Below are positions 721 to 29,388 of a DNA stretch of 34,923 bases, in pieces (the stretch's first letter is position 1; the number at the start of each line of letters is the position of its first letter). Origin of the DNA: a virus; the UHGV virus genome UHGV-0335080. One strand, given 5' to 3'. The translations under genes and the position numbers were made by a program. Below the pieces are notes generated by a model, which saw nothing but the letters and a program-made list of their open reading frames with translations, was not told the DNA's origin and made no database searches.

Positions 721-2034
721 TTAACTTACTGATTTTAATAAGCCTCTGGTGTCACTTTGGTGACTATGGGGCATCATTGGGACATAATCTGTCAGCTTCT
801 GATTCAGCATTGCGATCTGTTCTGCATTGCTGTCAGTCATCCATGCTCCGTATACATTGAATACCATCTGGGCACTTGCATGGCCCATCTGGCTGGCAAT
901 GAAGCTTGGGTTTGCTCCGGCAGATAATGACCAGCACGCATAAGTGTGTCGTGACTGGTATGCCTTTCGATGCCTGATCCCTGCACGCTTAATGGCTGTT
1001 TCCCATGAGTCACCTACAGAATCGACTTTGTAGACAAAACCTACCTGTTCGCTTTTTCTAACCACTTGAGGGTTAAACACGAAAGTACATTCATGGTTCA
1101 CTGAACGTCTATATTCACGTAGTTGCACCTTGATGTTGTACTGCTTACCCAGTCTTGTCATTTCAGCCTGATTTTTCAGGACACTGATAGCGGGCTGGAT
1201 AAGGTGCACAACCCTGTTTGTGCTTGCTTCAGTTTTCGGTAGAGTGAACTCACCAAGTTTCGTATAATTGCGCCTGATGGTAATTGTTCCTGCCTTCAGA
1301 TCGATATCTTCCCAGGCCAGGGAGACCAGTTCACCGTGACGCATTCCTGTGTACACAGCCAATGACCACAGGTTTTTCGTCTGCTGATGTCGGCAAGCAT
1401 CTATCAGGCGAATAAATTCGTCACGAGTTAGCGGATCTGGCTCTGCCCTGGCTCTTTTAAGAGGCTTAATTCCCTGGAAGGGATTTGCTTCTAAGTAACC
1501 GTGATCTGCAGCAAACTGAAACATTCCAGCGATTGTCGTCATGTAATAATTTACAGTAACGACGCTCCGTCCTTTTGCTGCTACTTTGTTTTTCGTTGAA
1601 TTCTGATACCCGGTAAGCAAATCTTTCCTGATATACAGCAATTCCTCTTTGGTTACCGATGACACCAGTCTACTGCCTCCAATTTTCGGAACCATCGTTC
1701 TTGCAACGGATTCATAGCGATTGAATGCATTTGCAGAGATTTCCATTCGTTTCAGATCCAGCCACTTTTCTTCAAGTTCCTTCACCGTAATTTCTTTTTT
1801 ACTTACCCCAAAAGTCTGAAGGTTGGGGGAGTCAGGGAACTGTGCAGCATAATCAAAGCTTCCTGTGCGGATGGCAAAACATACTGATGTCCGCAGTTCC
1901 CCGGCGATCTTCCTGTTCTTGGCAGTGTCAGGGACACCAAGATTTTCCCTGACACGTTTACCTTTAAAATTAAACCAGATGCGTAATGTGCCGCCGTGGT
2001 TTTCGACGCCTGTTGGATATTTGACTTTATCCAT
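721..2034 (-). CDS. int: Phage integrase, tyrosine site-specific recombinase
   Basis: 437-aa ORF; C-terminal catalytic region with R...HxxR...Y pattern (HSRHTYACW, VFNVYGAWM); GGAGGT RBS; adjacent excisionase; position at prophage end. Confidence 0.9.
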   Translation of the reverse strand: MDKVKYPTGVENHGGTLRIWFNFKGKRVRENLGVPDTAKNRKIAGELRTSVCFAIRTGSFDYAAQFPDSPNLQTFGVSKKEITVKELEEKWLDLKRMEISANAFNRYESVARTMVPKIGGSRLVSSVTKEELLYIRKDLLTGYQNSTKNKVAAKGRSVVTVNYYMTTIAGMFQFAADHGYLEANPFQGIKPLKRARAEPDPLTRDEFIRLIDACRHQQTKNLWSLAVYTGMRHGELVSLAWEDIDLKAGTITIRRNYTKLGEFTLPKTEASTNRVVHLIQPAISVLKNQAEMTRLGKQYNIKVQLREYRRSVNHECTFVFNPQVVRKSEQVGFVYKVDSVGDSWETAIKRAGIRHRKAYQSRHTYACWSLSAGANPSFIASQMGHASAQMVFNVYGAWMTDSNAEQIAMLNQKLTDYVPMMPHSHQSDTRGLLKSVS

Positions 2035-2089: not shown

Positions 2090-2326
2090 TCACCTGGGTT
2101 GTTTGTTTTTCATTGAGGCGACCCAGGCATCTATTGCTTTTCTGTTATACATACATTCACTGGAAGGCTTTGGATTACCGTCTGGTGATACGTGAATATA
2201 CTCTCTTCCAACCATCCAGCATTCTTTCCGGGCCCGAAGAATTGTGCCTGGTTTGAGCCCGGTAATTGCGATAAGAACGCTTTCACAAACCCATTCATTG
2301 GGAGCCAGTTGAATCACATTGCCCAT
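2090..2326 (-). CDS. xis: Excisionase-like protein
   Basis: 78-aa ORF immediately upstream of int on same strand; small basic protein resembling lambdoid prophage excisionase-like proteins; GAGGT RBS. Confidence 0.6.
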   Translation of the reverse strand: MGNVIQLAPNEWVCESVLIAITGLKPGTILRARKECWMVGREYIHVSPDGNPKPSSECMYNRKAIDAWVASMKNKQPR

Positions 2327-2334
2327 GTATTACC

Positions 2335-2481
2335 TCACACAACACTCAGCCCACGGCAGTGGCAACACACTTCAAACATTCGCTTCACAACTTCACGACA
2401 GTAGAAGCCGTCAACATCTCGCGTCAGGTCATAGCGATTGCCGTAACGCTGGTGGACCCATCGTTCAAATGCTTTATTCAT
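2335..2481 (-). CDS. Hypothetical small protein (48 aa), Cys-rich C-terminus
   Basis: ORF below the 60-aa track cutoff, translated by hand: MNKAFERWVHQRYGNRYDLTRDVDGFYCREVVKRMFEVCCHCRGLSVV; AAGGAAG RBS; starts 3 nt after upstream gene stop. Confidence 0.3.
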   Translation of the reverse strand: MNKAFERWVHQRYGNRYDLTRDVDGFYCREVVKRMFEVCCHCRGLSVV

Positions 2482-2484
2482 TCT

Positions 2485-2727
2485 TTACTTCCTTTTTATG
2501 GCTCGTAATTTTTTCAGGTGCTTTTCCTGCTCAGTGTCCGCGAGAATTTTGCGGTACTCCTGGTGGTCAATATGTTCGAACAGGCAGTTTAACTCACCAA
2601 TGCGTACCCGCCCGGATCGTCCGTCCATCCGTCGAAAGAACACTGAGTGCTCAGTGATGCGAGTAATCACCACGGGGTATCCGGCTCTGTCCGTGTATAT
2701 CTGACCGCGTTGAATCAAAGCGAACAT
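2485..2727 (-). CDS. Hypothetical prophage protein (possibly DUF4222-like)
   Basis: Track ORF 2485..2781 trimmed to internal Met (MFALIQRGQ...); the upstream MRWRWRWW extension looks like translation of a repetitive noncoding stretch. Confidence 0.5.
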   Translation of the reverse strand: MFALIQRGQIYTDRAGYPVVITRITEHSVFFRRMDGRSGRVRIGELNCLFEHIDHQEYRKILADTEQEKHLKKLRAIKRK

Positions 2728-2811
2728 GTGGTTATCCCCAGCGGCAAATCGAATACACCACCAGCGCCACCGCCATCGCAATTCCTACCGTTGTTAATGC
2801 TTCAGGCCAGG

Positions 2812-3156
2812 TCATCGTAAAATATCCTCCACGCTCATCAGTCCGTTCCGCTCCAGATAACTCATCGCCTTATCCGGTAATTTGCAGTCTGGCTTCGCTT
2901 TCCTCAGTTGCCAGGTTAACTGCTTTACCAGCATGGTTAACTCATCGACCAGACGCTGATATCCCACTGGTTTGTATTCATGCAATTTACCGGCTGGCTC
3001 TGCTGCCAGCGATACCAGTGCGATTTCCAGAACAGCAATATCCATCTTATATGTGCGGATGATGTCATGGTCGATTGTGCCCGGTATGCACAGTCTCTGT
3101 GCTTCAATAGTCTCCTCTGCGTGAGCTATTAACTGCTCTCTGGTAAAAGTCGTCAT
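2812..3156 (-). CDS. Hypothetical early-left operon protein (114 aa)
   Basis: Track ORF; start overlaps stop of upstream gene (ATGA); no recognised domain. Confidence 0.6.
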
Positions 3157-3320
3157 GCCGTAGCCCCTTCTTGATATTTTTCAAACCAGAACACAACCGG
3201 CTCTGCTTCCAGCGATACCAGCGCAATCCGTGCCAGTTCCATTTGTTCACCACGGGTAAGCCCGTTTTCAAGCGGATTTTTAATGAACAATTCAATACGT
3301 TCTTTGGTAATAGTGGTCAT
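3153..3320 (-). CDS. Hypothetical protein (55 aa); paralog of N-terminal module of 3596..4006 gene
   Basis: Hand-translated: [62 protein letters not shown]; about 85% nt identity to 3872-4006. Confidence 0.5.
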
Positions 3321-3330
3321 GTGTTACTCC

Positions 3331-3594
3331 TTAACCCGCAGTGCTTTCAACTGATGAGGGGAACAAAATCTTTTCATCAAACCCTGCATTCATATCATGG
3401 ACAGCAACACACCAATCCATTGACGAACGATTATCAAGAGCCTCCATGATTTCATCCATGCGGCGCAGGTCATACAGGTAAATGCTTTTATCGCCAATGG
3501 TGTAAAAACCAATTTTTTTCGGTGATGGGCAGCGATCAAGAACGTCCTGTAATTCGTTCAACCATGCCCGTTCTTTTTTTGTTAAAGTTGCCAT
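3331..3594 (-). CDS. Hypothetical protein (87 aa)
   Basis: Track ORF 3331..3705 trimmed to Met preceded by AAGGAGAGTGA RBS (MATLTKKERAWLNEL...). Confidence 0.55.
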   Translation of the reverse strand: MATLTKKERAWLNELQDVLDRCPSPKKIGFYTIGDKSIYLYDLRRMDEIMEALDNRSSMDWCVAVHDMNAGFDEKILFPSSVESTAG

Positions 3595-3595
3595 A

Positions 3596-4006
3596 TCACT
3601 CTCCTTTCCCATGAAGCATAGCGGCGCGGCAGGCGTTCCAGCCTGTAGCGTATGCAGCCGCTTTGCTGCTGCCTTCAACTGGCGCATCCTGCCAATACAT
3701 TTCATCCGGCACTACCGGCGCTGGCAAGGCAGCGTGATAGTAGAGTGGCATAGTTTTGTACAGTGGTTCGCCAGGACTTCCGTCAACCTGATTCCATTCT
3801 TCAACCCAGGCATCAACAACCGCTTTGCTGGTTGATACATGTTCTTCTGAATCTACATTTTGTCCTGATATACAGAACATAACTGCCTCTGCTTCCAGCG
3901 ATGCCAGAGCAATTCGTGCCAGTTCCATTTGTTCGCCACGAGTAAGTCCGTTATCAAGCGGATTTTTAATGAATAATTTGATACGTTCTTTGGTTATAGC
4001 GTTCAT
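3596..4006 (-). CDS. Hypothetical protein (136 aa) with duplicated N-terminal module
   Basis: Track ORF 3596..4048 trimmed to MNAITKERIKLF... preceded by AAGGAGAGTGA RBS; N-terminal 35 aa paralogous to 3153..3320 product. Confidence 0.6.
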   Translation of the reverse strand: MNAITKERIKLFIKNPLDNGLTRGEQMELARIALASLEAEAVMFCISGQNVDSEEHVSTSKAVVDAWVEEWNQVDGSPGEPLYKTMPLYYHAALPAPVVPDEMYWQDAPVEGSSKAAAYATGWNACRAAMLHGKGE

Positions 4007-4007
4007 C

Positions 4008-4823
4008 TCACTCTCCTTTGATGCGAATGCCAGTAGCGCGGATTGCATCGATGACTTCAGAAACTTTGTATGCCATTACCGTTTGGTAATCATCGTGAAA
4101 ATCTGTTCGATGAAGCATGCTGCTACGTTCCGGGAGCGATATTTCCCGAGCATCCAGTTCCTTAACGCGCTCCTCCAGTTCGTAGACCCTGCATTGTTCT
4201 CTATCATCAATCAGATATAACCCAAGACATTCGCTTTCTACCCAACCGCCAAAATCATGATCGTAACGCTCACATGAAAACTCACCGTCACCGTCCTTTG
4301 TTGGAATGGTGTAACTATCTAATGGGCCACCATATGTCGGCACATTTCCCAATGTTGGATGCTCAATCCACATGAAAAATGCACGTCCGGTTATTGGGCA
4401 AATATCTGGCCGCCATTGGTTACGAACAGCCTTGGTTTCGGATAATTCTTCAGCGTGTTGTTTTACTTCCTCAAGCTCAACTCTCAGCTTCCCAACCGTA
4501 AGAGCAATATCCTCGTTCTTCTGGTCGCGGCGTTTGATGTATTGCTGGTTTCTTTCCAGCTCATCCAGCAGCGCCAAGACGGTAGCCGGATTGGCTGCAG
4601 CGATGAATTCAGCATTGGCCTGCTGTTCCATTTGGAAATCTTCATCGAAACCGCTTTCAGGATGCGCTCCTTCAATTCTGCAAATGGGAATATATCCAGC
4701 AGCCTCGCGATGAATTAGCGCATCATCACCATCAAATCGGCCCGATCCATATTCGAGCGACCACTCACCACACGTTGCTTTCTCTGCCTTTTCACGCAGT
4801 GCCTGATAGTCAATCTTGCTCAC
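4008..4823 (-). CDS. Hypothetical acidic coiled-coil protein (271 aa), possibly Ead/Ea22-like early protein
   Basis: Track ORF; GTG start with AAGGAGG RBS; central coiled-coil-like stretch; family assignment is from memory and weak. Confidence 0.6.
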   Translation of the reverse strand: MSKIDYQALREKAEKATCGEWSLEYGSGRFDGDDALIHREAAGYIPICRIEGAHPESGFDEDFQMEQQANAEFIAAANPATVLALLDELERNQQYIKRRDQKNEDIALTVGKLRVELEEVKQHAEELSETKAVRNQWRPDICPITGRAFFMWIEHPTLGNVPTYGGPLDSYTIPTKDGDGEFSCERYDHDFGGWVESECLGLYLIDDREQCRVYELEERVKELDAREISLPERSSMLHRTDFHDDYQTVMAYKVSEVIDAIRATGIRIKGE

Positions 4824-5124
4824 TGGTTGCCTCCTTTGCCGGGATTTCTAACTTTTGAGTGGTTGTATCAAATTCAAACAACTTAACCACGTCATCAAAC
4901 AGGACATAATCACCATCAGGATCTTCAGTCATATCTGCGCCACAATCCTGACCGCACGAGTCGCAACCATCCATATCAAGCTCGTATCGCTTCAGGTTTG
5001 CGATATTTGATAAATTCAGCGCCAGTACAGCCAGGTCATAAACCTCTTCGGCAGTGACATCGCTGTTCAGTCCCATTTCATGGCGATATATGATTTTTTC
5101 TACTCGTTGTTTTGTGATCGTCAT
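4810..5124 (-). CDS. Hypothetical acidic protein (104 aa) with CxxC..C cluster
   Basis: Track ORF 4810..5148 trimmed to MTITKQ...; DGCDSCGQDCGAD motif; overlaps upstream gene 3' end. Confidence 0.5.
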   Translation of the reverse strand: MTITKQRVEKIIYRHEMGLNSDVTAEEVYDLAVLALNLSNIANLKRYELDMDGCDSCGQDCGADMTEDPDGDYVLFDDVVKLFEFDTTTQKLEIPAKEATSEQD

Positions 5125-5272
5125 TTTTCTCTTCACTCCGATATACAAGGATTACCACACCCCCTCTGCTGATTGCGCGAGCTGGATCCCCTGGTTCCAT
5201 GCCGTCAATTCCGAAGGCTTCGGAAAACGCATTCATTGCCTTCTGGCGTTCATCCTGCTTACGGCGTTTATT

Positions 5273-5395
5273 CTATTTTTTCAGGAACAACAGCGACAGC
5301 CACCGTCCGCTGCAGAACACGATGTAAAAATAACCAAGGAGCGCCAGGCCGACATTCAGGGCCGTTTCTATGGTTAGTTGTGAGTCAGTTGCCAT
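5273..5395 (-). CDS. Putative small hydrophobic peptide (40 aa)
   Basis: Hand-translated MATDSQLTIETALNVGLALLGYFYIVFCSGRWLSLLFLKK; overlaps 3' end of upstream wHTH gene; below ORF-track cutoff. Confidence 0.25.
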   Translation of the reverse strand: MATDSQLTIETALNVGLALLGYFYIVFCSGRWLSLLFLKK

Positions 5396-5633
5396 TTCTT
5401 ACCTGTTTAAGTAACTGGTTGAACATAACACTTAGGGGATTGCTGTATCCAAACGGCAGATTGTTTACGCAGTACAGAATCATTTTGTTTTTTTCTCCAG
5501 TTCGTACTATTAACCCATTCCACAATAACCGTGATAATTCATTACTGATAGAAGTTGCGCTTCTTCCAAGTGCGAGGGATATATCTTCTCTACTGCAATC
5601 TGGATTTTCCTGGATATACTCGATAACGGTCAT
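5385..5633 (-). CDS. Small winged-helix-like DNA-binding protein (82 aa)
   Basis: Track ORF 5385..5675 trimmed to MTVIEYIQENPDCSREDISLALGRSATSISNELSRLLWNGLIVR, an HTH/wHTH-like pattern. Confidence 0.5.
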   Translation of the reverse strand: MTVIEYIQENPDCSREDISLALGRSATSISNELSRLLWNGLIVRTGEKNKMILYCVNNLPFGYSNPLSVMFNQLLKQVRNGN

Positions 5634-5643
5634 GTGGTCCCTT

Positions 5644-6225
5644 TTACTTAATATCTGTTTCGGATTGCATGCCATGAGTATTCATTTCGTTAATAATTTC
5701 ATCCAGAAGGATTTCAAGCCCTTCTCGACCCATATCTGAAAGAATGAAACCTTTATCAGGGGAAGTAGTGAGCATTTTCTGATAAAGAAACAGCGCTCTT
5801 CCCATTCCTTCAGCTTCGCCGTATTTTTGAATTAAATTCCATTCAATATACTGTTGTAAGGCAAATCGAATGGGGCCGGGATATATCGTCATAAACCCAT
5901 ACATCCCGTTATATACCACGGCGTGTTCAGTTGTTCCGTGTTCATTCAGGATATCAATTGTGCCGTTCTTGTCTTCTTCTTCGTTGATGAATGTCGTCAC
6001 ATACAACCATCGCCACTGAGCAACCTTCATCTCAACCGGAAGTTTACCCAGTAATCCTGCTTCGTCGGCTTGCGCCAGACACTGAAGGATACGTAAACCT
6101 CGCACATTAGGAGTATCGAATTCTCCGGCATCCAGACGACGTATGGCGTCGTGATAATCAATCGTCATACTGCCAGTTCGTATACCATTGGCTGTTGCTT
6201 CAGCCTGGAATTCATCGTATTGCAT
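5644..6225 (-). CDS. Hypothetical protein (193 aa)
   Basis: Track ORF; GAGGA RBS; no recognised domain. Confidence 0.65.
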   Translation of the reverse strand: MQYDEFQAEATANGIRTGSMTIDYHDAIRRLDAGEFDTPNVRGLRILQCLAQADEAGLLGKLPVEMKVAQWRWLYVTTFINEEEDKNGTIDILNEHGTTEHAVVYNGMYGFMTIYPGPIRFALQQYIEWNLIQKYGEAEGMGRALFLYQKMLTTSPDKGFILSDMGREGLEILLDEIINEMNTHGMQSETDIK

Positions 6226-6230
6226 GATAT

Positions 6231-6413
6231 TTATTCCTCATCTTCATCTGCTGGTGCAATAACGTCATATCCTGCCTTTTCTGCAATAAACAGGAATGTT
6301 GAAAGAGTTCCTACAAGTTCATCGTCATGAACATGGCGAATGAATATTACTTTCCCGTTTTTGATGGTCAGCAATACTCTGGTTTGTTCGTGTTCTGCTG
6401 TTTTCTGATGCAT
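6231..6413 (-). CDS. Hypothetical small acidic protein (60 aa)
   Basis: Track ORF; GGGAGA RBS. Confidence 0.45.
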   Translation of the reverse strand: MHQKTAEHEQTRVLLTIKNGKVIFIRHVHDDELVGTLSTFLFIAEKAGYDVIAPADEDEE

Positions 6414-6607
6414 TATTATCTCCCGTATGCTTTACGCAGAAATAAGCAGGCAATATGCATGTAATTTTCACCGTATTGTGCAATAAGGCAGGCGGTCTTG
6501 TGTGATGCCATATTCTTTATAAAAGTCACAATAAAGCCTCCTGTGGATTAAGGTTGTAACAATCCCCGGCGATAAAACCGCAATAAACGTTCAGGGCATA
6601 TTTGTTG

Positions 6608-6973
6608 TTATTGCGCTAATTCTTTTTCGGCAGCAGCTTTTGTATACTCACATGCAAAATTCAGAATTTCGCTGCCGAGTGTTTTCGTTTCGTGATTACT
6701 GGACATATGTAATACCTGTGTTGCATGCAATAAATGATAAACATTTACCGCAAATGAATCAGGCTCCAGGCAAATGCCTTCGTAATTATCTTGCTGTGAG
6801 GTTGTTTCTGTCATTGCTCCTGAAGTGCATACGAGCCTGTTTTTGACAATTCTCTTTTCTCTAATCACTATATCGGCAACATCTATTGCCTTTACAACCT
6901 CCGGGAGAAGTTCCGGGTTTGTATAATCAAAGTCATCAACATGGAGAACAGTTATGTTTTCGAACTTTTTCAT
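6608..6973 (-). CDS. Hypothetical protein (121 aa)
   Basis: Track ORF; GAGGA RBS 4 nt upstream of ATG; separated from neighbours by intergenic gaps, unlike the coupled operon to its left. Confidence 0.6.
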   Translation of the reverse strand: MKKFENITVLHVDDFDYTNPELLPEVVKAIDVADIVIREKRIVKNRLVCTSGAMTETTSQQDNYEGICLEPDSFAVNVYHLLHATQVLHMSSNHETKTLGSEILNFACEYTKAAAEKELAQ

Positions 6974-7101
6974 GGTTTCCTCAGCTGACTTATATGTTCT
7001 GCTATATAGCGAGTCTCAGAAGTGTTTTCATATTAAGACTGTTTCCGCAATGATTGATAAAAATGTTCGCATGTACCTTGAGGGGCGAAGCGGCGATTAT
7101 G

Positions 7102-7605
7102 TCACCATTGGTATTGGTTCTTCCGTAGAAGAGCTTCGCGAGATAAGGGGCAAACTTGTTGAGATGCGTCATGGTGTTGCTGCTCCTCACTTTTTGGTTG
7201 CTCCGGAGGAGTAACCTCACCAGTTAACAGCCACATCGCATCGCAGCCAAGAATATTTGCCAGTGGGATAAGCATACTGATAGTTGGTTCATACTCTCCG
7301 CTCTCCCACTGGATGATAATTTCTTCATCGAGATCGAGCAGCCTGGCGAGTTCGGCGGTTGTTAAGCCGCAGGCTTCGCGTTGGGTGCGAAGACGGTTGT
7401 TGATTGCAGAATTTTTGTTCTGTAAAAGCATTGCTGACGATAGCTTTCTGGATATGCTATTTGTCATATCCCATGCCAGTCCTGCGCATGACTCTATATC
7501 GCTAGAGAGCGTAGCATCAGGTGTTGCTTTTGCTATTAGTGTAATGAGGCTGCCGAGGTTTTTCAGTTCTTCGAGACAGTCAAGAGTTGTAGCTTTATTG
7601 ATCAT
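7102..7605 (-). CDS. HTH (XRE-family) domain protein, 167 aa, first gene downstream of cI
   Basis: Central HTH motif (LRTQREACGLTTAELARLLDLDEEIIIQWESGEYEPTISMLIPLANILGCDAMWLLTGE); GAGGT RBS; start overlapped by operator-like inverted repeat. Confidence 0.7.
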   Translation of the reverse strand: MINKATTLDCLEELKNLGSLITLIAKATPDATLSSDIESCAGLAWDMTNSISRKLSSAMLLQNKNSAINNRLRTQREACGLTTAELARLLDLDEEIIIQWESGEYEPTISMLIPLANILGCDAMWLLTGEVTPPEQPKSEEQQHHDASQQVCPLSREALLRKNQYQW

Positions 7606-7610
7606 GAGAT

Positions 7611-7690
7611 GATACCTCAGTTACGAACTTTGTTTTATGGTAACTAAGGTATCAAGGCGTGGCAAGTAATTTTTGATACTTTGGTTTCTT
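7611..7690. promoter_or_regulatory. Operator-like site cluster (OL-like) downstream of cI, with candidate leftward promoter
   Basis: TGATACCTCAGTTAC (7611-7625) and its inverted copy GTAACTAAGGTATCA (7642-7656), plus TGATACTTTGGTTTC (7676-7690); possible TTGCCA-N17-TACCAT on minus strand. Confidence 0.4.
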
Positions 7691-7708
7691 TTTGTGTTTT
7701 GTGTCTGG

Positions 7709-8365
7709 TCAGAAAATATCCCATCTGGCATCAACCACAACACCTACTATTTCGCAATCATTGTCCATTTCTATGATTGGATATTGTGGATTAAGGGGCT
7801 TTAGAAACGCCTTTCCCATGTCAGAAATATATTTTTTGAATGTTGCTTCATTGGTGGATTTTTTTCTGGCGATGACGTAACACCCTGAAAAAACTTCTTT
7901 ATCTGGGTTGACAAGGATCGACATTCCTTCAGGAAATGTTATTCCTACGGGCGAAGTCATTGAGTCTCCGTGCACTTCCAGCCAGAACCCCCTCTCACCA
8001 GCGTATTTTACAGAATGCCTCCAATTATCCTGATCATACATGTTGTAGTCATCACCAGAAGTTGCGAATAATCCTGCCTGAACCCAGTTAATTACAGGGT
8101 AAGAGTGTGCTGTGTCTCTCTGTGGGCAGCTCTTAACATTATTTTCCCAATGCTTATCTTTTTCATCTCCGTTCTGAAGCCACTGCGGTGAACACCGCAG
8201 TGCAGCTGCAACTTTAAAAAGGGTGTCACCGTTGAAACTTTTTGTAAGGCCTTGCTCGGCTTTACTTATTGCAACTCTGGTGACCCCAGCTTTTTTAGCC
8301 AACGCATCTTGTGTTAACCCAGCTTTTTGCCGTGCGTTGATGAGACGTTCACCTAAAGACTTCAT
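7709..8365 (-). CDS. cI: CI-like prophage repressor: N-terminal HTH plus C-terminal LexA-like S24 autopeptidase domain
   Basis: HTH_XRE motif (LTQDALAKKAGVTRVAISKAEQG); Ala-Gly candidate cleavage site (VQAGL); Ser in GDSM and downstream Lys (ARKK); GAGGAG RBS; track ORF trimmed to MKSLGERL. Confidence 0.9.
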   Translation of the reverse strand: MKSLGERLINARQKAGLTQDALAKKAGVTRVAISKAEQGLTKSFNGDTLFKVAAALRCSPQWLQNGDEKDKHWENNVKSCPQRDTAHSYPVINWVQAGLFATSGDDYNMYDQDNWRHSVKYAGERGFWLEVHGDSMTSPVGITFPEGMSILVNPDKEVFSGCYVIARKKSTNEATFKKYISDMGKAFLKPLNPQYPIIEMDNDCEIVGVVVDARWDIF

Positions 8366-8386: not shown

Positions 8387-8462
8387 GTTGATACTAAAGT
8401 AACAGAATTTCTTGATACTTTGGGTTCCTGTGGTTAACATCGTTGGATAACAAAGTATCTGG
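8387..8462. promoter_or_regulatory. Operator-like site cluster (OR-like) between cI and rightward genes, with candidate PR
   Basis: TGATACTAAAGTAAC (8391-8405), TGATACTTTGGGTTC (8414-8428), inverted AGATACTTTGTTATC (8446-8460); TTGATA-N17-TAACAT rightward promoter-like at 8412-8439. Confidence 0.45.
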
Positions 8463-9516: not shown

Positions 9517-10179
9517 ATGATCATTTCAAGACCAAATATTGATTCTGCAATTTCGGGACGTTACACTGTCTCCGCACCTTATAAAGCGGGTGCCGGGATT
9601 GGCGTCCTGAAATTGTCAACGGCGATGTATGACGCGCCAGCGTCTTTTTTATCGTCCGCATTTGCTCACATCCAGATTATGGTGGGCTGGGCGGGGGCAC
9701 CGAAAGGTGCGCCGGTCTCCGTTGACGCCGGTTACGCCAACCCCGTCCAGTTCACCACCAGTGAAATTGGCGTTTCCGGTGGTGGAAGTTTTTCACTGTC
9801 AACGGAGGCTGCCATCATGGCTACTGTCCTAACTTCCCCATTCCTAAAAATCGAAGTCGTCAACGGCAAGGCCGTTATTTTCTCCCTGCATGTTGCCTGC
9901 CATTTCAAGCGCATGCACCAGAACATCGTTGACAAAATCGAGTATCTGAACTGCTCACGCGAGTTTTTTACCCGCAATTTCATACCGGGTACTTATCACA
10001 TCTACGGTGACTCCCTGCGTGGTTATTACATCACCCTTGATGGTCTGATGATGCTTCAGCTTGGGTTAAGTCTGCGCACAATGCGGTACTACGAGAGCTG
10101 TATTGAAGCATTCCATGAGGCTGAAACCGTCCAGGGTCACTCCGCGTTCCGTCGTAATCAACGGGAGGTGCACCTATGA
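9517..10179 (+). CDS. Rha-domain protein with unrecognised Gly-rich N-terminal domain (220 aa)
   Basis: C-terminal Rha-like segment (KIEVVNGKAVIFSLHVACHFKRMHQNIVDKIEYL...); N-terminal about 100 aa paralogous to next gene. Confidence 0.65.
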   Translation: MIISRPNIDSAISGRYTVSAPYKAGAGIGVLKLSTAMYDAPASFLSSAFAHIQIMVGWAGAPKGAPVSVDAGYANPVQFTTSEIGVSGGGSFSLSTEAAIMATVLTSPFLKIEVVNGKAVIFSLHVACHFKRMHQNIVDKIEYLNCSREFFTRNFIPGTYHIYGDSLRGYYITLDGLMMLQLGLSLRTMRYYESCIEAFHEAETVQGHSAFRRNQREVHL

Positions 10180-11027
10180 TCCGCCACCAGCATATTGATT
10201 CTGCAATTCCGGGACGTTACACTGCTCAGGCACCTTATAAAGCGGGTGCCGGGCGTGGAAACCCGAAATTCAATATAGAGCACAACCGCGCTCATGCGGT
10301 TTTTTCGTGTCATGAGCATCGTTACACCCAAATTATGGTGGGGCGTGCAGGGCCAACTTCGGTTGGGCCGGGTTCTATGTTGACCGGTATTTCCACCCCT
10401 GTACGTCTCACCACCTATATGGTCGTGGAAAGCCTTGGTGGTGAGTTCATTGAATTCAACATAGGGGCTGTCACCATGACTACTCTCCCAACCCAATCTC
10501 ACCCTGAAATCACGATTATCAATGGTCGCGTTGTCACCACATCTCTTGCAGTAGCTAATTACTTTACTAAACGGCATGAGCGGGTTTTAGATAGAATTAG
10601 AAACCTCGAATGTTCCGCTGAATTTACTGAACACAATTTTGTGTTAAGTGAATACACCGACGCATCAGGCCGCAAACTCCCTTGTTACCAAATCACCCGC
10701 GACGGTTTTGCGTTTCTTGCCATGGGCTTCACTGGTAAACGTGCTGCCCAGTTCAAAGAGGCATACATCAACGCCTTTAACCTGATGGAGAAGAGTTTAT
10801 CAGGTGCCGATGCGTCTGATATGTCAGCTGTCGCACGAAACGCCAGAGGCGTATACCTGCATTTGCGTGAAATCCATCAAATCTGGACAAGCCAGCTTTA
10901 TCCAATGCTTAAGGCCGTTGAATCTCCGCTGGCTAGCAAACTGTACGACCGTGTTGGTGATGCTGTTTTTGGCGCTGCACTTGTTGATTCCAGGCTGAAT
11001 GGTTCTGACAAGGAGGTTCGCCCATGA
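10176..11027 (+). CDS. Rha-domain protein, paralog of upstream gene (283 aa)
   Basis: Rha-like segment (ITIINGRVVTTSLAVANYFTKRHERVLDRIRNLECSAEF...YQITRDGFAFLAMGFTGKRAAQFKEAYINAF); shared N-terminal domain; ATGA-coupled start with GGAGGTG RBS. Confidence 0.7.
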   Translation: MIRHQHIDSAIPGRYTAQAPYKAGAGRGNPKFNIEHNRAHAVFSCHEHRYTQIMVGRAGPTSVGPGSMLTGISTPVRLTTYMVVESLGGEFIEFNIGAVTMTTLPTQSHPEITIINGRVVTTSLAVANYFTKRHERVLDRIRNLECSAEFTEHNFVLSEYTDASGRKLPCYQITRDGFAFLAMGFTGKRAAQFKEAYINAFNLMEKSLSGADASDMSAVARNARGVYLHLREIHQIWTSQLYPMLKAVESPLASKLYDRVGDAVFGAALVDSRLNGSDKEVRP

Positions 11028-15318: not shown

Positions 15319-16338
15319 ATGCATTCAATATCGTTTGCTGAGGTGACCGTGAGAGCACTGCTGACCCCTGAAATTGCCCCGCGTATGGGGATTGTATTGT
15401 TCAGGCCCGGTTCAGAGCTGATGCCCCTGTTTATGCAGGGGCGTGTCCTGCTGGAGCCTGAGCCGGAACGTTATTCATCTTTCGCCAGCGGTGCCGTTCC
15501 GGCAGCATCACAACCGCTGGCGGATGATCCTGCCGTTCGGGCCGTGTTCCGCAATGAGGCAGTTATTCGTTGTACTGGTGGGGTGGAATGTCTTGAAAGC
15601 TGGTTACTTCGTGAAAAGGGCTGTCAGTGGCCTCATTCCGACTGGCACAGCGAGAACATGACCACAATGCGGCACGCGTCAGGCGCAATCCGTCTGTGCT
15701 GGCACTGTGACAATCTTCTCCGTGACCAGTTCACGGAACGGCTGGAATCAATGGCAACGGATAACTGTGCCCGCTGGGTGTTGTCCGTAGTCCGTCGTGA
15801 TCTCGGTTTTGATGACAGCCACGTTGTGACAATGCCGGAACTGTGCTGGTGGCTGGTTCGTAATGACCTGGCGGATGCCTTACCGGAAAGTGCAGCCCGT
15901 AAGGCACTGAGATTACCGAAGCCTGTTGTGCCGTCTGTCACCCGGGAAAGTGACCTTGTGCCTTCGGTTCCTGCCACCAGCATCATCCGGGATAAGGCGA
16001 AAAAGGTGCTGGCGCTGAAAGTGGATCCGGAGTCGCCGGAGTCTTTTATGTTACGCCCCAAACGTCGTCGCTGGGTTAATGAAAAGTACACGCGCTGGGT
16101 TAAGACGCAGCCGTGTGCATGTTGTGGTAAGCCAGCCGACGATCCTCATCACCTGATTGGTCATGGTCAGGGCGGAATGGGAACAAAAGCGCATGACCTT
16201 TTTGTGTTGCCTTTGTGCAGAAAACACCATGACGAACTGCATGCGGATACCGTGGCATTTGAAGAGAAGTATGGCTCCCAACTGGAGCTGATATTTCGTT
16301 TTATCGATCGCGCGCTGGCGATTGGTGTGCTGTCCTGA
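15319..16338 (+). CDS. DUF968-family protein with C-terminal HNH-like Cys/His motif
   Basis: C-terminus CACCGKPADDPHHLIGHGQGGMGTKAHDLFVLPLCRKHHDELH resembles DUF968 proteins found upstream of Q in E. coli prophages (from memory). Confidence 0.65.
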   Translation: MHSISFAEVTVRALLTPEIAPRMGIVLFRPGSELMPLFMQGRVLLEPEPERYSSFASGAVPAASQPLADDPAVRAVFRNEAVIRCTGGVECLESWLLREKGCQWPHSDWHSENMTTMRHASGAIRLCWHCDNLLRDQFTERLESMATDNCARWVLSVVRRDLGFDDSHVVTMPELCWWLVRNDLADALPESAARKALRLPKPVVPSVTRESDLVPSVPATSIIRDKAKKVLALKVDPESPESFMLRPKRRRWVNEKYTRWVKTQPCACCGKPADDPHHLIGHGQGGMGTKAHDLFVLPLCRKHHDELHADTVAFEEKYGSQLELIFRFIDRALAIGVLS

Positions 16339-25917: not shown

Positions 25918-27419
25918 TGGCAATTATTGATGATGTGATAGGCGTGTTTTCCCCCGGCTGGAAAGCAGCCAGACTGCGTTCAAGGGCGTTAATCATGGCC
26001 TATGAGGCGGTGAAACCGACCCGGACACATAAAGCCCGGCGGGAAAATCGCTCTGCTGATCAGCTCAGTAAATACGGTGCGGTTTCCCTGCGGGAGCAGG
26101 CCCGTTTTCTGGATATCAATCATGACCTGGTGATTGGTGTGTTTGACAAGCTGGAAGAGCGGGTGATTGGTGCCAGGGGAATTATTGTGGAGCCTCAGCC
26201 ATTACGAAAAAACGGGGAAATGGCGGCAGAGCTGGCTGCGGATATCCGCCGGTTGTGGGCTGAGTGGTCCGTGAGTCCGGATGTGACAGGGCAGTATACC
26301 CGTCCCGTGCTTGAACGTTTACTGCTGCGGACCTGGCTGCGGGATGGTGAAGTGTTTGCGCAGATGGTCAGTGGTGCGGGAAACGGTCTGGAACGGACGG
26401 CGGGAGTGCCATTCTGGCTTGAGGCGATGGAGCCGGATTTTGTTCCCATGCGCACTGATGAATCCGCCGGACTGAATCAGGGGGTTTTTCTTGATGAGTG
26501 GGGAAGGCCGAAAAAATATCTGGTTTATAAAAATTATCCGGTCAGCGGCCGGCAGAGTGATACGAAAGAAATCGCTGCCGGAAAAATGATCCACCTGAAG
26601 TTCACTCGTCGTCTGCATCAGACGAGAGGCTCATCCATGTTATCGGGGGTGCTGATGCGGATCAGTGCCCTTAAGGAGTATGAGGATGCGGAACTCACTG
26701 CGGCGCGTATTGCCGCGGCGCTGGGACTGTATATCCGTAAAGGTGACGGGCAGGACTATGAAGAGCCGGGGATCAAAGAAACCGACCGGGAAGTCCATAT
26801 CACCCCGGGTATTATTTATGACGATTTGCGCAAGGGCGAGGATATCGGCATGGTCAAATCAGACCGTCCCAATCCCAACCTTGAAACTTTCCGCAACGGC
26901 CAGTTGCGTGCAGTGGCAGCGGGCAGTCGTCTGAGTTTTTCCAGTGCGGCGCGTAACTATAACGGCACCTACAGTGCCCAGCGGCAGGAGCTGGTCGAGT
27001 CCACGGATGGTTACCTGATCCTGCAGGACTGTTTTATTGGCGCGGTAACCCGTCCGGTGTACCGGACATGGCTGAATATGGTGGTTGCGGCAGGTCTGCT
27101 GAAAATTCCGGCGGATGTGGAGATGAAAACGCTATATAACGCGACGTATTCCGGTCCGGTGATGCCGTGGATCGACCCGGTTAAGGAAGCTGAAGCCTGG
27201 AGAATTCAGATCCGGGGTGGTGCAGCGACAGAATCTGACTGGGTGCGTGCCGGCGGGCGCAATCCGGATGAGGTCAAACGTCGCCGCAAGGCTGAAATTG
27301 ATGAAAACAGCAGACTGGGGCTGGTCTTTGATACTGACCCCGTCAACGACAAAGGAGGCAACAGTGCCGGAACTGAACAACAGCGTCAGCAGGCCACCGA
27401 CAGCCAGCATGAAGAATAA
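25917..27419 (+). CDS. B: Portal protein (lambda gpB-like)
   Basis: 500 aa; position after terminase and W; TAATG stop/start overlap with W. Confidence 0.85.
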   Translation: MAIIDDVIGVFSPGWKAARLRSRALIMAYEAVKPTRTHKARRENRSADQLSKYGAVSLREQARFLDINHDLVIGVFDKLEERVIGARGIIVEPQPLRKNGEMAAELAADIRRLWAEWSVSPDVTGQYTRPVLERLLLRTWLRDGEVFAQMVSGAGNGLERTAGVPFWLEAMEPDFVPMRTDESAGLNQGVFLDEWGRPKKYLVYKNYPVSGRQSDTKEIAAGKMIHLKFTRRLHQTRGSSMLSGVLMRISALKEYEDAELTAARIAAALGLYIRKGDGQDYEEPGIKETDREVHITPGIIYDDLRKGEDIGMVKSDRPNPNLETFRNGQLRAVAAGSRLSFSSAARNYNGTYSAQRQELVESTDGYLILQDCFIGAVTRPVYRTWLNMVVAAGLLKIPADVEMKTLYNATYSGPVMPWIDPVKEAEAWRIQIRGGAATESDWVRAGGRNPDEVKRRRKAEIDENSRLGLVFDTDPVNDKGGNSAGTEQQRQQATDSQHEE

Positions 27420-29388
27420 ATCCTGGTTCAGGATGCAGGCGGGTGGTCAGGGGGAGGCGGATATTTATATTTATGACGAGATTGGTTTCTGGGGAGTTAC
27501 CGCGAAGCAGTTTGTCAGCGATATGAATGCCCTGGGTGATATCACCCACATTAATCTCCACATCAACTCACCGGGTGGCGATGTCTTTGAAGGCATCGCC
27601 ATTTTTAATGCCCTGAAAAATCACGGTGCGGCCATTACCGTGTATGTGGATGGCGTTGCCGCCTCGATGGCATCCCTGATTGCGATGGCCGGTGACACGG
27701 TCATTATGCCGGAAAATGCCTTCATGATGATCCATAAACCCTGGGGGATCAGCGGTGGTGATGCGGAGAAAATGCGCACTTATGCCGAACGTCTGGACAA
27801 ACTTGAGTCGGTTATGGTGCCGGTATATGCGCAGAAAACCGGAAAAACTACCGATGAAATTGCCGCCATGCTGGCGGATGAGACCTGGATGTCCGGTGCC
27901 GAGTGTCTGGCACACGGATTTGCAGACCAGGTGACGCCAGCCGTTAAGGCAATGGCATGTATTCAGTCAAAACGTACAGAGGAATTTAAAAAGATGCCGG
28001 AATCCATCCGAAATATGATCACGCAGCCATACAACAGTGCCCCGCGTGATACCACAGTGACAATCCCTGCACCGGCGGTAACAGAACCATCACCGGTACC
28101 GGCAGTGTCTGATGAGGCGACCATTCGCGCCCGCGTTATGGCAGAACAGAAAGCCCGCATGTCAGGCATTAACGATCTGTTTGCCATGTTCGGCGGTCGC
28201 TATCAGACGCTTCAGGCACAGTGCGTGGCTGATCCTGACTGTTCGCTGGAAATGGCCCGTGAACGTCTGCTGAATGAAATGGGCAAGGAGTCCTCGCCGA
28301 CCAACAAAAATACACCGGCTCATATTTATGCCGGAAACGGCAATTTTGTGGGGGACGGGATCCGCCAGGCGATGCTGGCCCGTGCCGGATTTGAAAATGT
28401 CGAGAAGGATAACGCCTATAACGGGATGACCCTGCGTGAATGGGCTCGCATGTCACTGACGGAGCGCGGTATTGGGGTGGCCAGTTATAACCCCATGCAG
28501 ATGGTCGGGCTGGCGCTGACGCACAGCACCTCTGATTTTGGCAATATTCTGCTGGATGTGTCGAACAAGGGGCTGATCCAGGGCTGGGAGGAATCAGAAG
28601 AAACCTTCCAGAAGTGGACCCGTAAGGGACGCCTGTCAGACTTCAAAACAGCGTATCGCGTGGGGATGGGCGGTTTTGGTTCTCTGCGCCAGGTTCGTGA
28701 GGGGGCGGAGTATAAATACATCACCACCTCAGATCGCAAGGAGACCATTGCACTGGCCACTTACGGGGAGATTTTCTCCATCACCCGCCAGGCCATTATC
28801 AATGATGATCTGAATATGCTGGTGGACGTGCCGATGAAGATGGGGCGTGCGGCGAAGGCAACGATTGGTGACCTGGTTTACAAGGTGCTGACGGATAACC
28901 CGAAACTGTCAGACGGTAAGGCGCTGTTCCATGCCGATCACAAAAATATTGCCACCGGTGGGATTTCCGTTTCCGGACTGGATGCGGCCCGTCAGATGAT
29001 GCGCCTGCAGAAAGAAGGCGATCGCGCCCTGAATATCCGTCCGGCCTTTATGCTGGTACCGGTGGCACTGGAGACGGTGGCGAACCAGACCATCAAATCG
29101 GCCAGTGTGAAAGGGGCGGATGCAAACGCCGGTGTCATTAACCCCATCCAGAATTTTGCTGAGGTGATTGCAGAAGCGCGTCTTGATGCGGCAGATCCGA
29201 AAACCTGGTATCTGGCGGCGGCACAGGGCACTGACACCATTGAAGTGGCCTGGCTGGATGGTGTGGACACGCCATACATTGATCAGCAGGAAGGTTTCAC
29301 CACTGACGGCATTGCCACAAAAATCCGTATTGATGCCGGAGTGGCACCACTTGACTGGCGCGGGCTGGTGCGTTCGTCGGTGGCCTGA
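27409..29388 (+). CDS. Prohead protease (ClpP/S49-like) fused to HK97-fold major capsid protein, single ORF
   Basis: N-terminal protease domain (IYIYDEIGFWG...INSPGGDVFEGIAIFNAL...VDGVAASMASLIAMAGD) then a 400-aa capsid-like region; ATG 27409 overlaps portal stop. Confidence 0.75.
   Translation: MKNKSWFRMQAGGQGEADIYIYDEIGFWGVTAKQFVSDMNALGDITHINLHINSPGGDVFEGIAIFNALKNHGAAITVYVDGVAASMASLIAMAGDTVIMPENAFMMIHKPWGISGGDAEKMRTYAERLDKLESVMVPVYAQKTGKTTDEIAAMLADETWMSGAECLAHGFADQVTPAVKAMACIQSKRTEEFKKMPESIRNMITQPYNSAPRDTTVTIPAPAVTEPSPVPAVSDEATIRARVMAEQKARMSGINDLFAMFGGRYQTLQAQCVADPDCSLEMARERLLNEMGKESSPTNKNTPAHIYAGNGNFVGDGIRQAMLARAGFENVEKDNAYNGMTLREWARMSLTERGIGVASYNPMQMVGLALTHSTSDFGNILLDVSNKGLIQGWEESEETFQKWTRKGRLSDFKTAYRVGMGGFGSLRQVREGAEYKYITTSDRKETIALATYGEIFSITRQAIINDDLNMLVDVPMKMGRAAKATIGDLVYKVLTDNPKLSDGKALFHADHKNIATGGISVSGLDAARQMMRLQKEGDRALNIRPAFMLVPVALETVANQTIKSASVKGADANAGVINPIQNFAEVIAEARLDAADPKTWYLAAAQGTDTIEVAWLDGVDTPYIDQQEGFTTDGIATKIRIDAGVAPLDWRGLVRSSVA

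Follow-up and report, generated by a model that had tools for sequence, protein, structure and literature searches.

The closest described counterparts of the locus analysed here are the exo-xis region of phage lambda (ea8.5, ea22, orf61, orf63, orf60a) and the ea region of P22 (eaA to eaI). Both adjoin xis, consist of small early genes and are highly mosaic, and their genes are dispensable in these model phages. Among 314 enterobacterial lambdoid phages, Zheng, Casjens, Davidson, Amundsen and Smith (Genome Res 2025, PMC12315714) report 68 that lack a recombination (Rec) module, and 62 of these 68 carry at least eight Chi sites on the top strand and at most six on the bottom strand. In LLS, the prototype of this class, Chi is the commonest octamer and RecBCD enhances growth; phages with both a Rec module and a RecBCD inhibitor are mostly without Chi (PMC12315714). 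The locus under study is a block of small genes at 2335-6225 of the virus genome UHGV-0335080, a 34,923-nucleotide (nt) stretch, hereafter the window, whose gene order throughout is that of a lambda-like temperate phage of Escherichia coli. The block lies between xis and the genes next to the cI-type repressor gene. It probably represents the dispensable accessory portion at the distal end of the leftward early genes in a Rec-less, Chi-rich E. coli lambdoid temperate phage, assembled from mosaic cassettes whose products are most likely regulatory.

The Chi octamer (GCTGGTGG) occurs 14 times in the window, between 2448 and 28825, with 10 copies on the + strand and four on the - strand; one of the top-strand copies falls inside the first gene of the block (2448-2455). 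Because the + strand carries the late genes, it corresponds to the top, active strand of lambda. Dinucleotide shuffles of the window contain a mean of 1.47 Chi and at most 5, against the 14 observed. Synonymous-codon shuffles of 54 open reading frames (ORFs), which preserve the proteins and the codon usage, predict 2.2 Chi on the + strand and 0.9 on the - strand, and none of 1000 such shuffles reaches 10 on the + strand or 14 in total. Moreover, Chi ties for first place among the 24,034 distinct + strand octamers. Relatives of the phage carry Chi as well (11 + 3 in Escherichia phage PhiR49_2 and 12 + 7 in the AVS0969 prophage), and the lambda and P22 stretches examined hold none. Of the 10 top-strand sites, seven fall in the 14.3 kb or so that lead up from the left to the inferred cos site, which is placed at about 23.0 kb, immediately before the terminase genes at 23112. 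These positions fit the reported right-end bias, in a window that leaves the distal tail region outside. The enrichment, which accompanies the Rec-less state, was missed by the original prediction, an earlier reading of the letters of this DNA.

The absence of recombination genes emerges from several searches. In tblastn comparisons of the whole window with all annotated proteins encoded from xis to cI in lambda and from xis to c2 in P22, the only matches are lambda Ea22, the N-terminal module of P22 EaA, part of EaD, and the repressors. Exo, Bet, Gam, Kil, cIII, Ea10, Ral, SieB, N, RexAB, Erf, Arf, Abc1, Abc2, gene 17 and gene 24 give nothing better than an E value of 0.017 in the window, and such weak matches (E at least 0.017) fall at unrelated places. 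Scans with Pfam, NCBIfam and PADLOC find no recombination or anti-RecBCD family, and among the promoter-proximal early-left and the early-right genes no recombinase, single-stranded DNA-binding protein (SSB), NinB, NinG or RusA family is detected with Pfam, PHROGs or NCBIfam. Annotation by the NCBI pipeline PGAP of a 99% identical prophage likewise lists no recombination gene. The sole nuclease-like gene of the early regions encodes a 339-amino-acid (aa) DUF968 protein (phrog_96, "HNH endonuclease") at 15319-16338 on the + strand, in the nin position just upstream of Q, and proteins of this DUF968/HNH type are not counted in the Rec module by Zheng et al. (PMC12315714). Judged by homology, recombination genes are truly absent from the window. 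These results bear out the earlier claim that no recombination, anti-RecBCD, Kil, cIII or SSB gene is present. Profile searches, named in the same source as a check, place no ORF of the block in a recombination family and all of them in catalogued phage families.

Comparative analysis places the phage in the "no Rec module, high Chi" class of lambdoid phages, which it matches in sequence features. It shares with that class the lambdoid organisation (int-xis, leftward early genes, cI, a cro-like gene, replication, Q, lysis, terminase, head, tail), the lack of any annealing protein, recombination nuclease, SSB or RecBCD inhibitor gene, the 10 top-strand and 4 bottom-strand Chi, and the joint first rank of Chi among octamers. 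Unlike LLS and ST64B, it shows no yfbR/yfdQ/yfdP cluster and carries other early-left genes, a comparison made on a window that represents about three quarters of the genome. Given the Chi enrichment and the survey of Zheng et al., the missing Rec and anti-RecBCD genes are a recognised trait of a known phage class and thus do not point to anything novel concealed in the block. Since a recombination module is absent and correctly oriented Chi is enriched, the phage would depend on the host enzymes: RecBCD and RecA probably process the ends of its linear or rolling-circle DNA and would so provide the recombination from which concatemers arise.

The block itself consists of 12 ORFs, 11 intact and one a pseudogene, all on the - strand and tightly packed. 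Neighbouring ORFs are 1-10 nt apart or overlap by 4-47 nt, the sole exception being an 84-nt gap at 2727/2812, and AGGAG-like Shine-Dalgarno sequences precede most starts. For example, the start of the 114-aa gene (g3 in Table 1) and the stop of its neighbour g4 overlap by 4 nt in the sequence ATGA. Each of 11 coding sequences (10 scanned directly plus the intact copy of the DUF4752 gene) has a PHROG match with an E value between 1e-18 and 1e-90, nearly all of these families being labelled "unknown function". Exact protein sequences occur in public data for all 10 proteins looked up (the 193-aa g11 was not among them), most of them on at least 1000 contigs, under names such as "hypothetical protein", DUF4222, DUF551 (partial), Eaa, ead/Ea22-like, DUF4752 and MarR family. 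Because of these matches and identical sequences, the ORFs are not chance products. The families represented are Ead/Ea22, DUF4222 (the RgdR family), DUF4752, a MarR-like winged helix and PHROGs 3871, 660, 1714, 3126 and 1515, and Pfam assigns three of the genes: g2 to DUF4222, g7 to Ead/Ea22 and the intact allele of g9 to DUF4752. By these assignments, all ORFs of the block belong to catalogued phage families without known function. Even at E values up to 5, Pfam, NCBIfam and PADLOC suggest no function in the block beyond Ea22, DUF4222, DUF4752 and a weak winged-helix signal; an Rfam scan of 2335-6225 yields no RNA gene, no tRNA is present, and internal terminator and promoter patterns show no excess over shuffles. 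A literature search by the RefSeq protein accessions of the block found no paper, nor was one found for PhiR49_2. The description of a string of tightly coupled small ORFs between xis and the cI-proximal genes therefore holds, and their placement in the leftward early string of a lambdoid phage is supported, the block being its distal part. Calling the genes unrecognised went too far, since all the ORFs can be placed in phage families already catalogued, and three of them in Pfam families.

Table 1. Coordinates of the block, its EaA-type repeats, the neighbouring genes and the Chi sites in the window.
Feature	Position	Strand	Assignment or remark
Tyrosine integrase	721-2034	-	
DUF1233-type excisionase (xis)	2090-2326	-	
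g1, 48 aa, Cys-rich C-terminus	2335-2481	-	Directly downstream of xis; phrog_3871, E 7.5e-33, full length
g2, 80-aa DUF4222 protein	2485-2727	-	PF13973, 50.6 bits (cutoff 27); phrog_285
g3, 114 aa, diverged EaA-type N-terminal module and C-terminal module common to several PHROGs	2812-3156	-	phrog_660, E 6e-42; alignment
g4, 55 aa, essentially the EaA N-terminal module only	3153-3320	-	84% identical to residues 1-44 of P22 EaA (317 aa)
146-nt direct repeat, copy 1	3187-3332		EaA-type module and Shine-Dalgarno sequence of g4
g5, 87 aa	3331-3594	-	phrog_1714, E 3e-50; function unassigned
g6, 136-aa chimera of EaA-type N-terminal module and unrelated C-terminal part	3596-4006	-	phrog_5117, 60, 660
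146-nt direct repeat, copy 2	3873-4018		Start of g6
g7, 271 aa, Ead/Ea22-like	4008-4823	-	Ea22 N-terminus, coiled coil and a different, portable C-terminal domain
g8, 104-aa acidic protein, C-x2-C-x3-C cluster, weak EaA-type N-terminus	4810-5124	-	phrog_3126, E 4e-64
g9, DUF4752 gene, 105 aa if intact, N-terminal hydrophobic helix	5078-5395	-	Pseudogene here; amber codon at 5273-5275
g10, 82-aa MarR-like winged helix	5385-5633	-	phrog_1687 "MarR family", E 1.3e-24
g11, 193 aa	5644-6225	-	Small uncharacterised family
60-aa ORF	6231-6413	-	Promoter-proximal part of leftward string
37-aa ORF	6416-6529	-	Promoter-proximal part of leftward string
121-aa ORF	6608-6973	-	Promoter-proximal part of leftward string
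167-aa helix-turn-helix (HTH) protein	7102-7605	-	First gene left of repressor; Pfam HTH_3; match to a "CII-like regulator" PHROG, E 1e-39
Candidate left operator and early-left promoter	7610-7695	-	Between repressor gene and 167-aa gene
cI-type repressor, HTH and S24 peptidase	7709-8365	-	Pfam Peptidase_S24 and HTH_3; P22 C2 E 3e-57; lambda cI E 1e-38
cro-like gene, Rha/ash, O-like initiator, DnaC-like loader, DnaB helicase, DUF968/HNH protein, antiterminator Q, lysis, terminase, head, tail	from ~8477	+	
Chi sites, top strand	2448, 8757, 12431, 14572, 15222, 15845, 21434, 22227, 23893, 28818	+	
Chi sites, bottom strand	2758, 10184, 11285, 15974	-	

Against the model phages, the block appears to correspond to the exo-xis region of lambda and the ea region of P22. 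It resembles them in adjoining xis, in its small early genes and high mosaicism, and in containing an Ea22 homologue and the EaA N-terminal module. It differs in having no homologue of ea8.5, orf61, orf63, orf60a, eaC, eaE, eaF, eaG or eaI and, because there is no Rec module, it is not bounded by exo as the lambda region is.

The block is a mosaic of translationally coupled cassettes, several of them built on one EaA-type N-terminal module of about 45 residues. This module is carried by a 146-nt direct repeat whose two copies are 86% identical, each spanning a ribosome-binding site and the first 45 or so codons; within g3, a short stretch at 2996-3024 makes up a third copy. The start of g6 is 60% identical to residues 1-65 of P22 EaA, and alignment reveals weaker EaA-type N-termini at the beginning of g3 and g8. 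In public data, the cluster mates of the module-only g4 are named "DUF551 domain-containing protein, partial", and PGAP splits g6 into a pair of pseudogene fragments, of which one is annotated as an incomplete DUF551 protein. The similarity to PhiR49_2 is interrupted at 3239/3298, 3598 and 4792, positions that coincide with EaA-type modules or gene ends, and a different Ea22 variant lies between the breaks. Exchange between phages at common modules and gene boundaries would generate new combinations of this kind together with debris, such as the module-only ORF, the chimeric ORF and the nonsense-mutated gene.

The 271-aa protein g7 was correctly recognised as Ea22-like in the original prediction: it matches PF13935 over residues 2-130 (113.1 bits, cutoff 27; E 2e-32) and lambda Ea22 by tblastn at E 8e-21. 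In lambda and the Shiga toxin (Stx) phages, Ea22 is among the earliest transcribed genes, favours lysogeny, forms a tetramer and has a variable, mosaic C-terminal domain (PMC7093339, PMC10834534). The N-terminal segment and coiled coil of g7 follow this pattern, with 32% identity to lambda Ea22. Unlike the lambda domain solved by NMR, the C-terminal domain of g7 is a separate and widespread unit with invariant Cys and His residues, unrelated to that domain. Its 141 residues have 2388 homologues in Escherichia, Salmonella and Klebsiella, occurring alone or on varied N-terminal parts, in line with the mosaic variants of Ea22 that Donaldson and colleagues describe. A PDB sequence search with g7 gave no match at E values up to 1, and the AlphaFold2 (AF2) model of the C-terminal domain has a predicted local distance difference test (pLDDT) score of 57, too low to use. 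Among 26 diverse homologues of this domain (4008-4430, - strand), a near-invariant motif reads CPITGR.FFMWIEHP...PTYGGP.DSYTIPT.D.DGEFSCERYDHD.GGW, whose two Cys and two His may form a metal-binding site.

Two further genes add to a regulatory picture. The DUF4222 protein g2 belongs to the family of RgdR (ECs1581), a regulator encoded by prophage Sp7 of enterohaemorrhagic E. coli (EHEC) that activates the Ler cascade (PMC10877973). The two proteins share the Pfam family, small size and location in a prophage early region. They differ in that identity with the Sakai protein is 41% over 27 residues only and that g2 has RGQ in place of the RGD motif, and the target of RgdR, the locus of enterocyte effacement with its type III secretion system (LEE/T3SS), may be absent from the hosts of the present phage. 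The probable winged-helix gene g10, whose presence had been anticipated, has Pfam scores below cutoff (MarR_2, 22.9 bits against 27; HTH_24, 19.8 against 21.9), and a PDB sequence search gave nothing usable. In Stx1a phages, a protein with 91% identity to the product of g10 carries the annotation of a MarR-family regulator, and the ratio of nonsynonymous to synonymous substitution rates (dN/dS) against that copy is 0.21. PGAP leaves the gene unannotated in near-identical genomes, and it is missing from the annotation of the PhiR49_2 record too. By analogy with Ea22 and RgdR, the products of the block most likely tune the lysis-lysogeny decision and host gene expression and not DNA processing; g10, on partial homology, would add to this regulatory reading.

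The 40-codon ORF at 5273-5395 had been proposed as a Kil-like inhibitor of host division. This candidate is rejected: the ORF is the N-terminal hydrophobic stub of the DUF4752 gene g9, cut short by a nonsense mutation. Compared with the intact AVS0969 copy, one T/C substitution at 5274 turns TGG (Trp41) into TAG, and the intact copy matches PF15944 (E 7e-37) and phrog_667 (E 3e-40). The amber allele is present in 7 complete E. coli genomes and the intact TGG allele in 104, and PGAP marks the former as a pseudogene with an "internal stop". Beyond shortness, nothing links the ORF to the Kil proteins of lambda and P22, which have no tblastn match to the block at E values up to 1; it is part of a truncated gene and not an independent one.

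The remaining genes of the block offer fewer clues. No Pfam, NCBIfam or PADLOC match was found for g1, whose exact sequence lies on at least 1000 contigs. For g5, the phrog_1714 match covers residues 38-124 of the longer ORF, which puts the start codon at 3594, an ATG preceded by the Shine-Dalgarno sequence GGAGAG, and PGAP annotates the gene in the 99.9% identical prophage. Pfam matches of g8 are all sub-threshold, for example zf-FCS at E 0.09.

Upstream of the block, the candidate left operator and the right operator region by the divergent cro-like gene (8404-8460) have operator-like repeats (GATACYTNNGT...) in common, and a sigma-70-like TTGCCA-17-TACCAT lies at 7665-7637 on the - strand. 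Transcription of the leftward string would start here, beside the repressor gene. No N-type antiterminator or boxA was found in the window to carry early-left transcription on to xis and int. The promoter-proximal genes between 6231 and 7605 match phrog_340, 5451 and 4739, none of which is a recombination family.

Several points weigh against reading the block as regulatory accessory cargo of a phage that leaves its recombination to the host. That the block forms a single operon driven from a repressor-proximal promoter is an assumption drawn from the gene arrangement, and tblastn with N and a search for boxA come up empty anywhere in the window. The analogies with Ea22 and RgdR, and the regulatory role argued from them, draw on distant or partial homology, given that the C-terminal domain of g7 differs from that of lambda and that g2 is without RGD. 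Zheng et al. (PMC12315714) also caution that Chi may accumulate passively in a long-resident prophage, and its right-end clustering can be assessed only in part here, as the window is without the distal tail genes. A challenge on the recombination side is that a protein of the block, most plausibly g11, might be an unrecognised recombination or RecBCD-handling protein, giving the phage a Rec function after all. Its AF2 model is confident (pLDDT 84.6, predicted template modelling score 0.82) and has no fold relative in PDB or BFVD, a PDB sequence search gives nothing usable, and a dN/dS of 0.23 indicates purifying selection; moreover, Zheng et al. (PMC12315714) concede that unrecognised Rec proteins are possible. 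However, the family is small, with 94 unnamed representatives in a profile search and close members confined to Escherichia, and nine distant members show no Pfam domain. Profile searches of the block give no nuclease, annealing-protein or OB-fold signal, no unknown gene is universal in the early-left regions of Rec-less phages (PMC12315714), and a Chi enrichment this strong and oriented is typical of phages in which RecBCD is left active, all of which makes a hidden Rec function highly improbable. It is also very unlikely that g11 or another conserved unknown is a new factor that helps a Rec-less phage to work with RecBCD and Chi, or that blocks host defence; if this were true, the role of the block would go beyond that of an accessory set of regulatory genes.

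The small, acidic and variable proteins of the block, encoded in cassettes that turn over fast, might instead, in line with the original prediction, form mainly an arsenal for anti-defence and host takeover, inhibiting host immunity or cell division. Accessory early-left regions of lambdoid phages do hold such genes, lambda Ral, Gam and Kil among them. Yet nothing in the block resembles Ral, Gam, Kil, Abc2 or gene 17, the only named candidate is a pseudogene fragment, and the studied relatives, Ea22 and RgdR, are developmental or transcriptional regulators. PADLOC covers defence systems only and not anti-defence, so this explanation, which appears unlikely, is weakly tested by that scan. One nonsense-mutated gene, one ORF split by PGAP into two pseudogene fragments and one module-only ORF could also be taken for the decaying cargo of a defective prophage without current function. 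The other genes are intact, however, dN/dS is about 0.2 in both genes tested (g10 and g11), and the replication, lysis and structural modules are complete. In 77 complete E. coli genomes the block is found over its full 3.9 kb at 99.9% identity, and 3200 of 5426 genomes as well as 547 phage records contain pieces of it. It differs from the AVS0969 prophage at two positions only, and most of it is common to PhiR49_2, a record deposited as a complete phage genome. Furthermore, bases 1-693 of the window match the outermost right end of PhiR49_2, on the dinI side, at 99.9% identity and run directly into the int end of the phage, so that the window shows the circular or attP junction and not a chromosomal attL. 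Decay without function is accordingly a very poor prospect, and an accessory region of a Rec-less, Chi-rich phage with most likely regulatory products is the preferred reading.

As a discovery, the block matters little: it is typical of mosaic accessory regions, and the prophage type that carries it is widespread in E. coli and belongs to a known phage class. Its value lies in annotation: a prophage type found in 77 complete genomes and named among ST131 sequences is placed in the recently defined Rec-less, Chi-rich class, an apparent mini-gene turns out to be a pseudogene fragment, and a conserved winged-helix gene missed by the NCBI pipeline is brought to light. Moreover, accessory genes like these represent a pool of small proteins of the kind that has yielded regulators and anti-defence factors in other phages.

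Several minor observations concern the rest of the phage. In complete genomes, the same phage adjoins yecE. An 86-aa ORF on the + strand (6954-7214) has a full-length match to phrog_6104 (E 5e-48) and shares about 110 nt with the 3' end of the 167-aa HTH gene on the - strand; the leftward string may thus contain a convergent gene. In the early-right region, Rfam matches at gathering threshold reveal two tandem units of isrK small RNA (sRNA) and C4 antisense RNA at 9574-10418, located within two successive ash/Rha antirepressor-type genes (9517-10179 and 10176-11027), an arrangement that resembles a duplicated P1/P7 immI-like antirepressor control unit. Downstream of Q, in the position of the late leader, the STnc100 sRNA family has a full-length match (165 bits) at 17098-17303. 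Finally, a 723-aa ORF at 27217-29388 on the + strand follows a portal-sized ORF with an overlap of about 200 nt and may represent a fused protease/scaffold/capsid gene.

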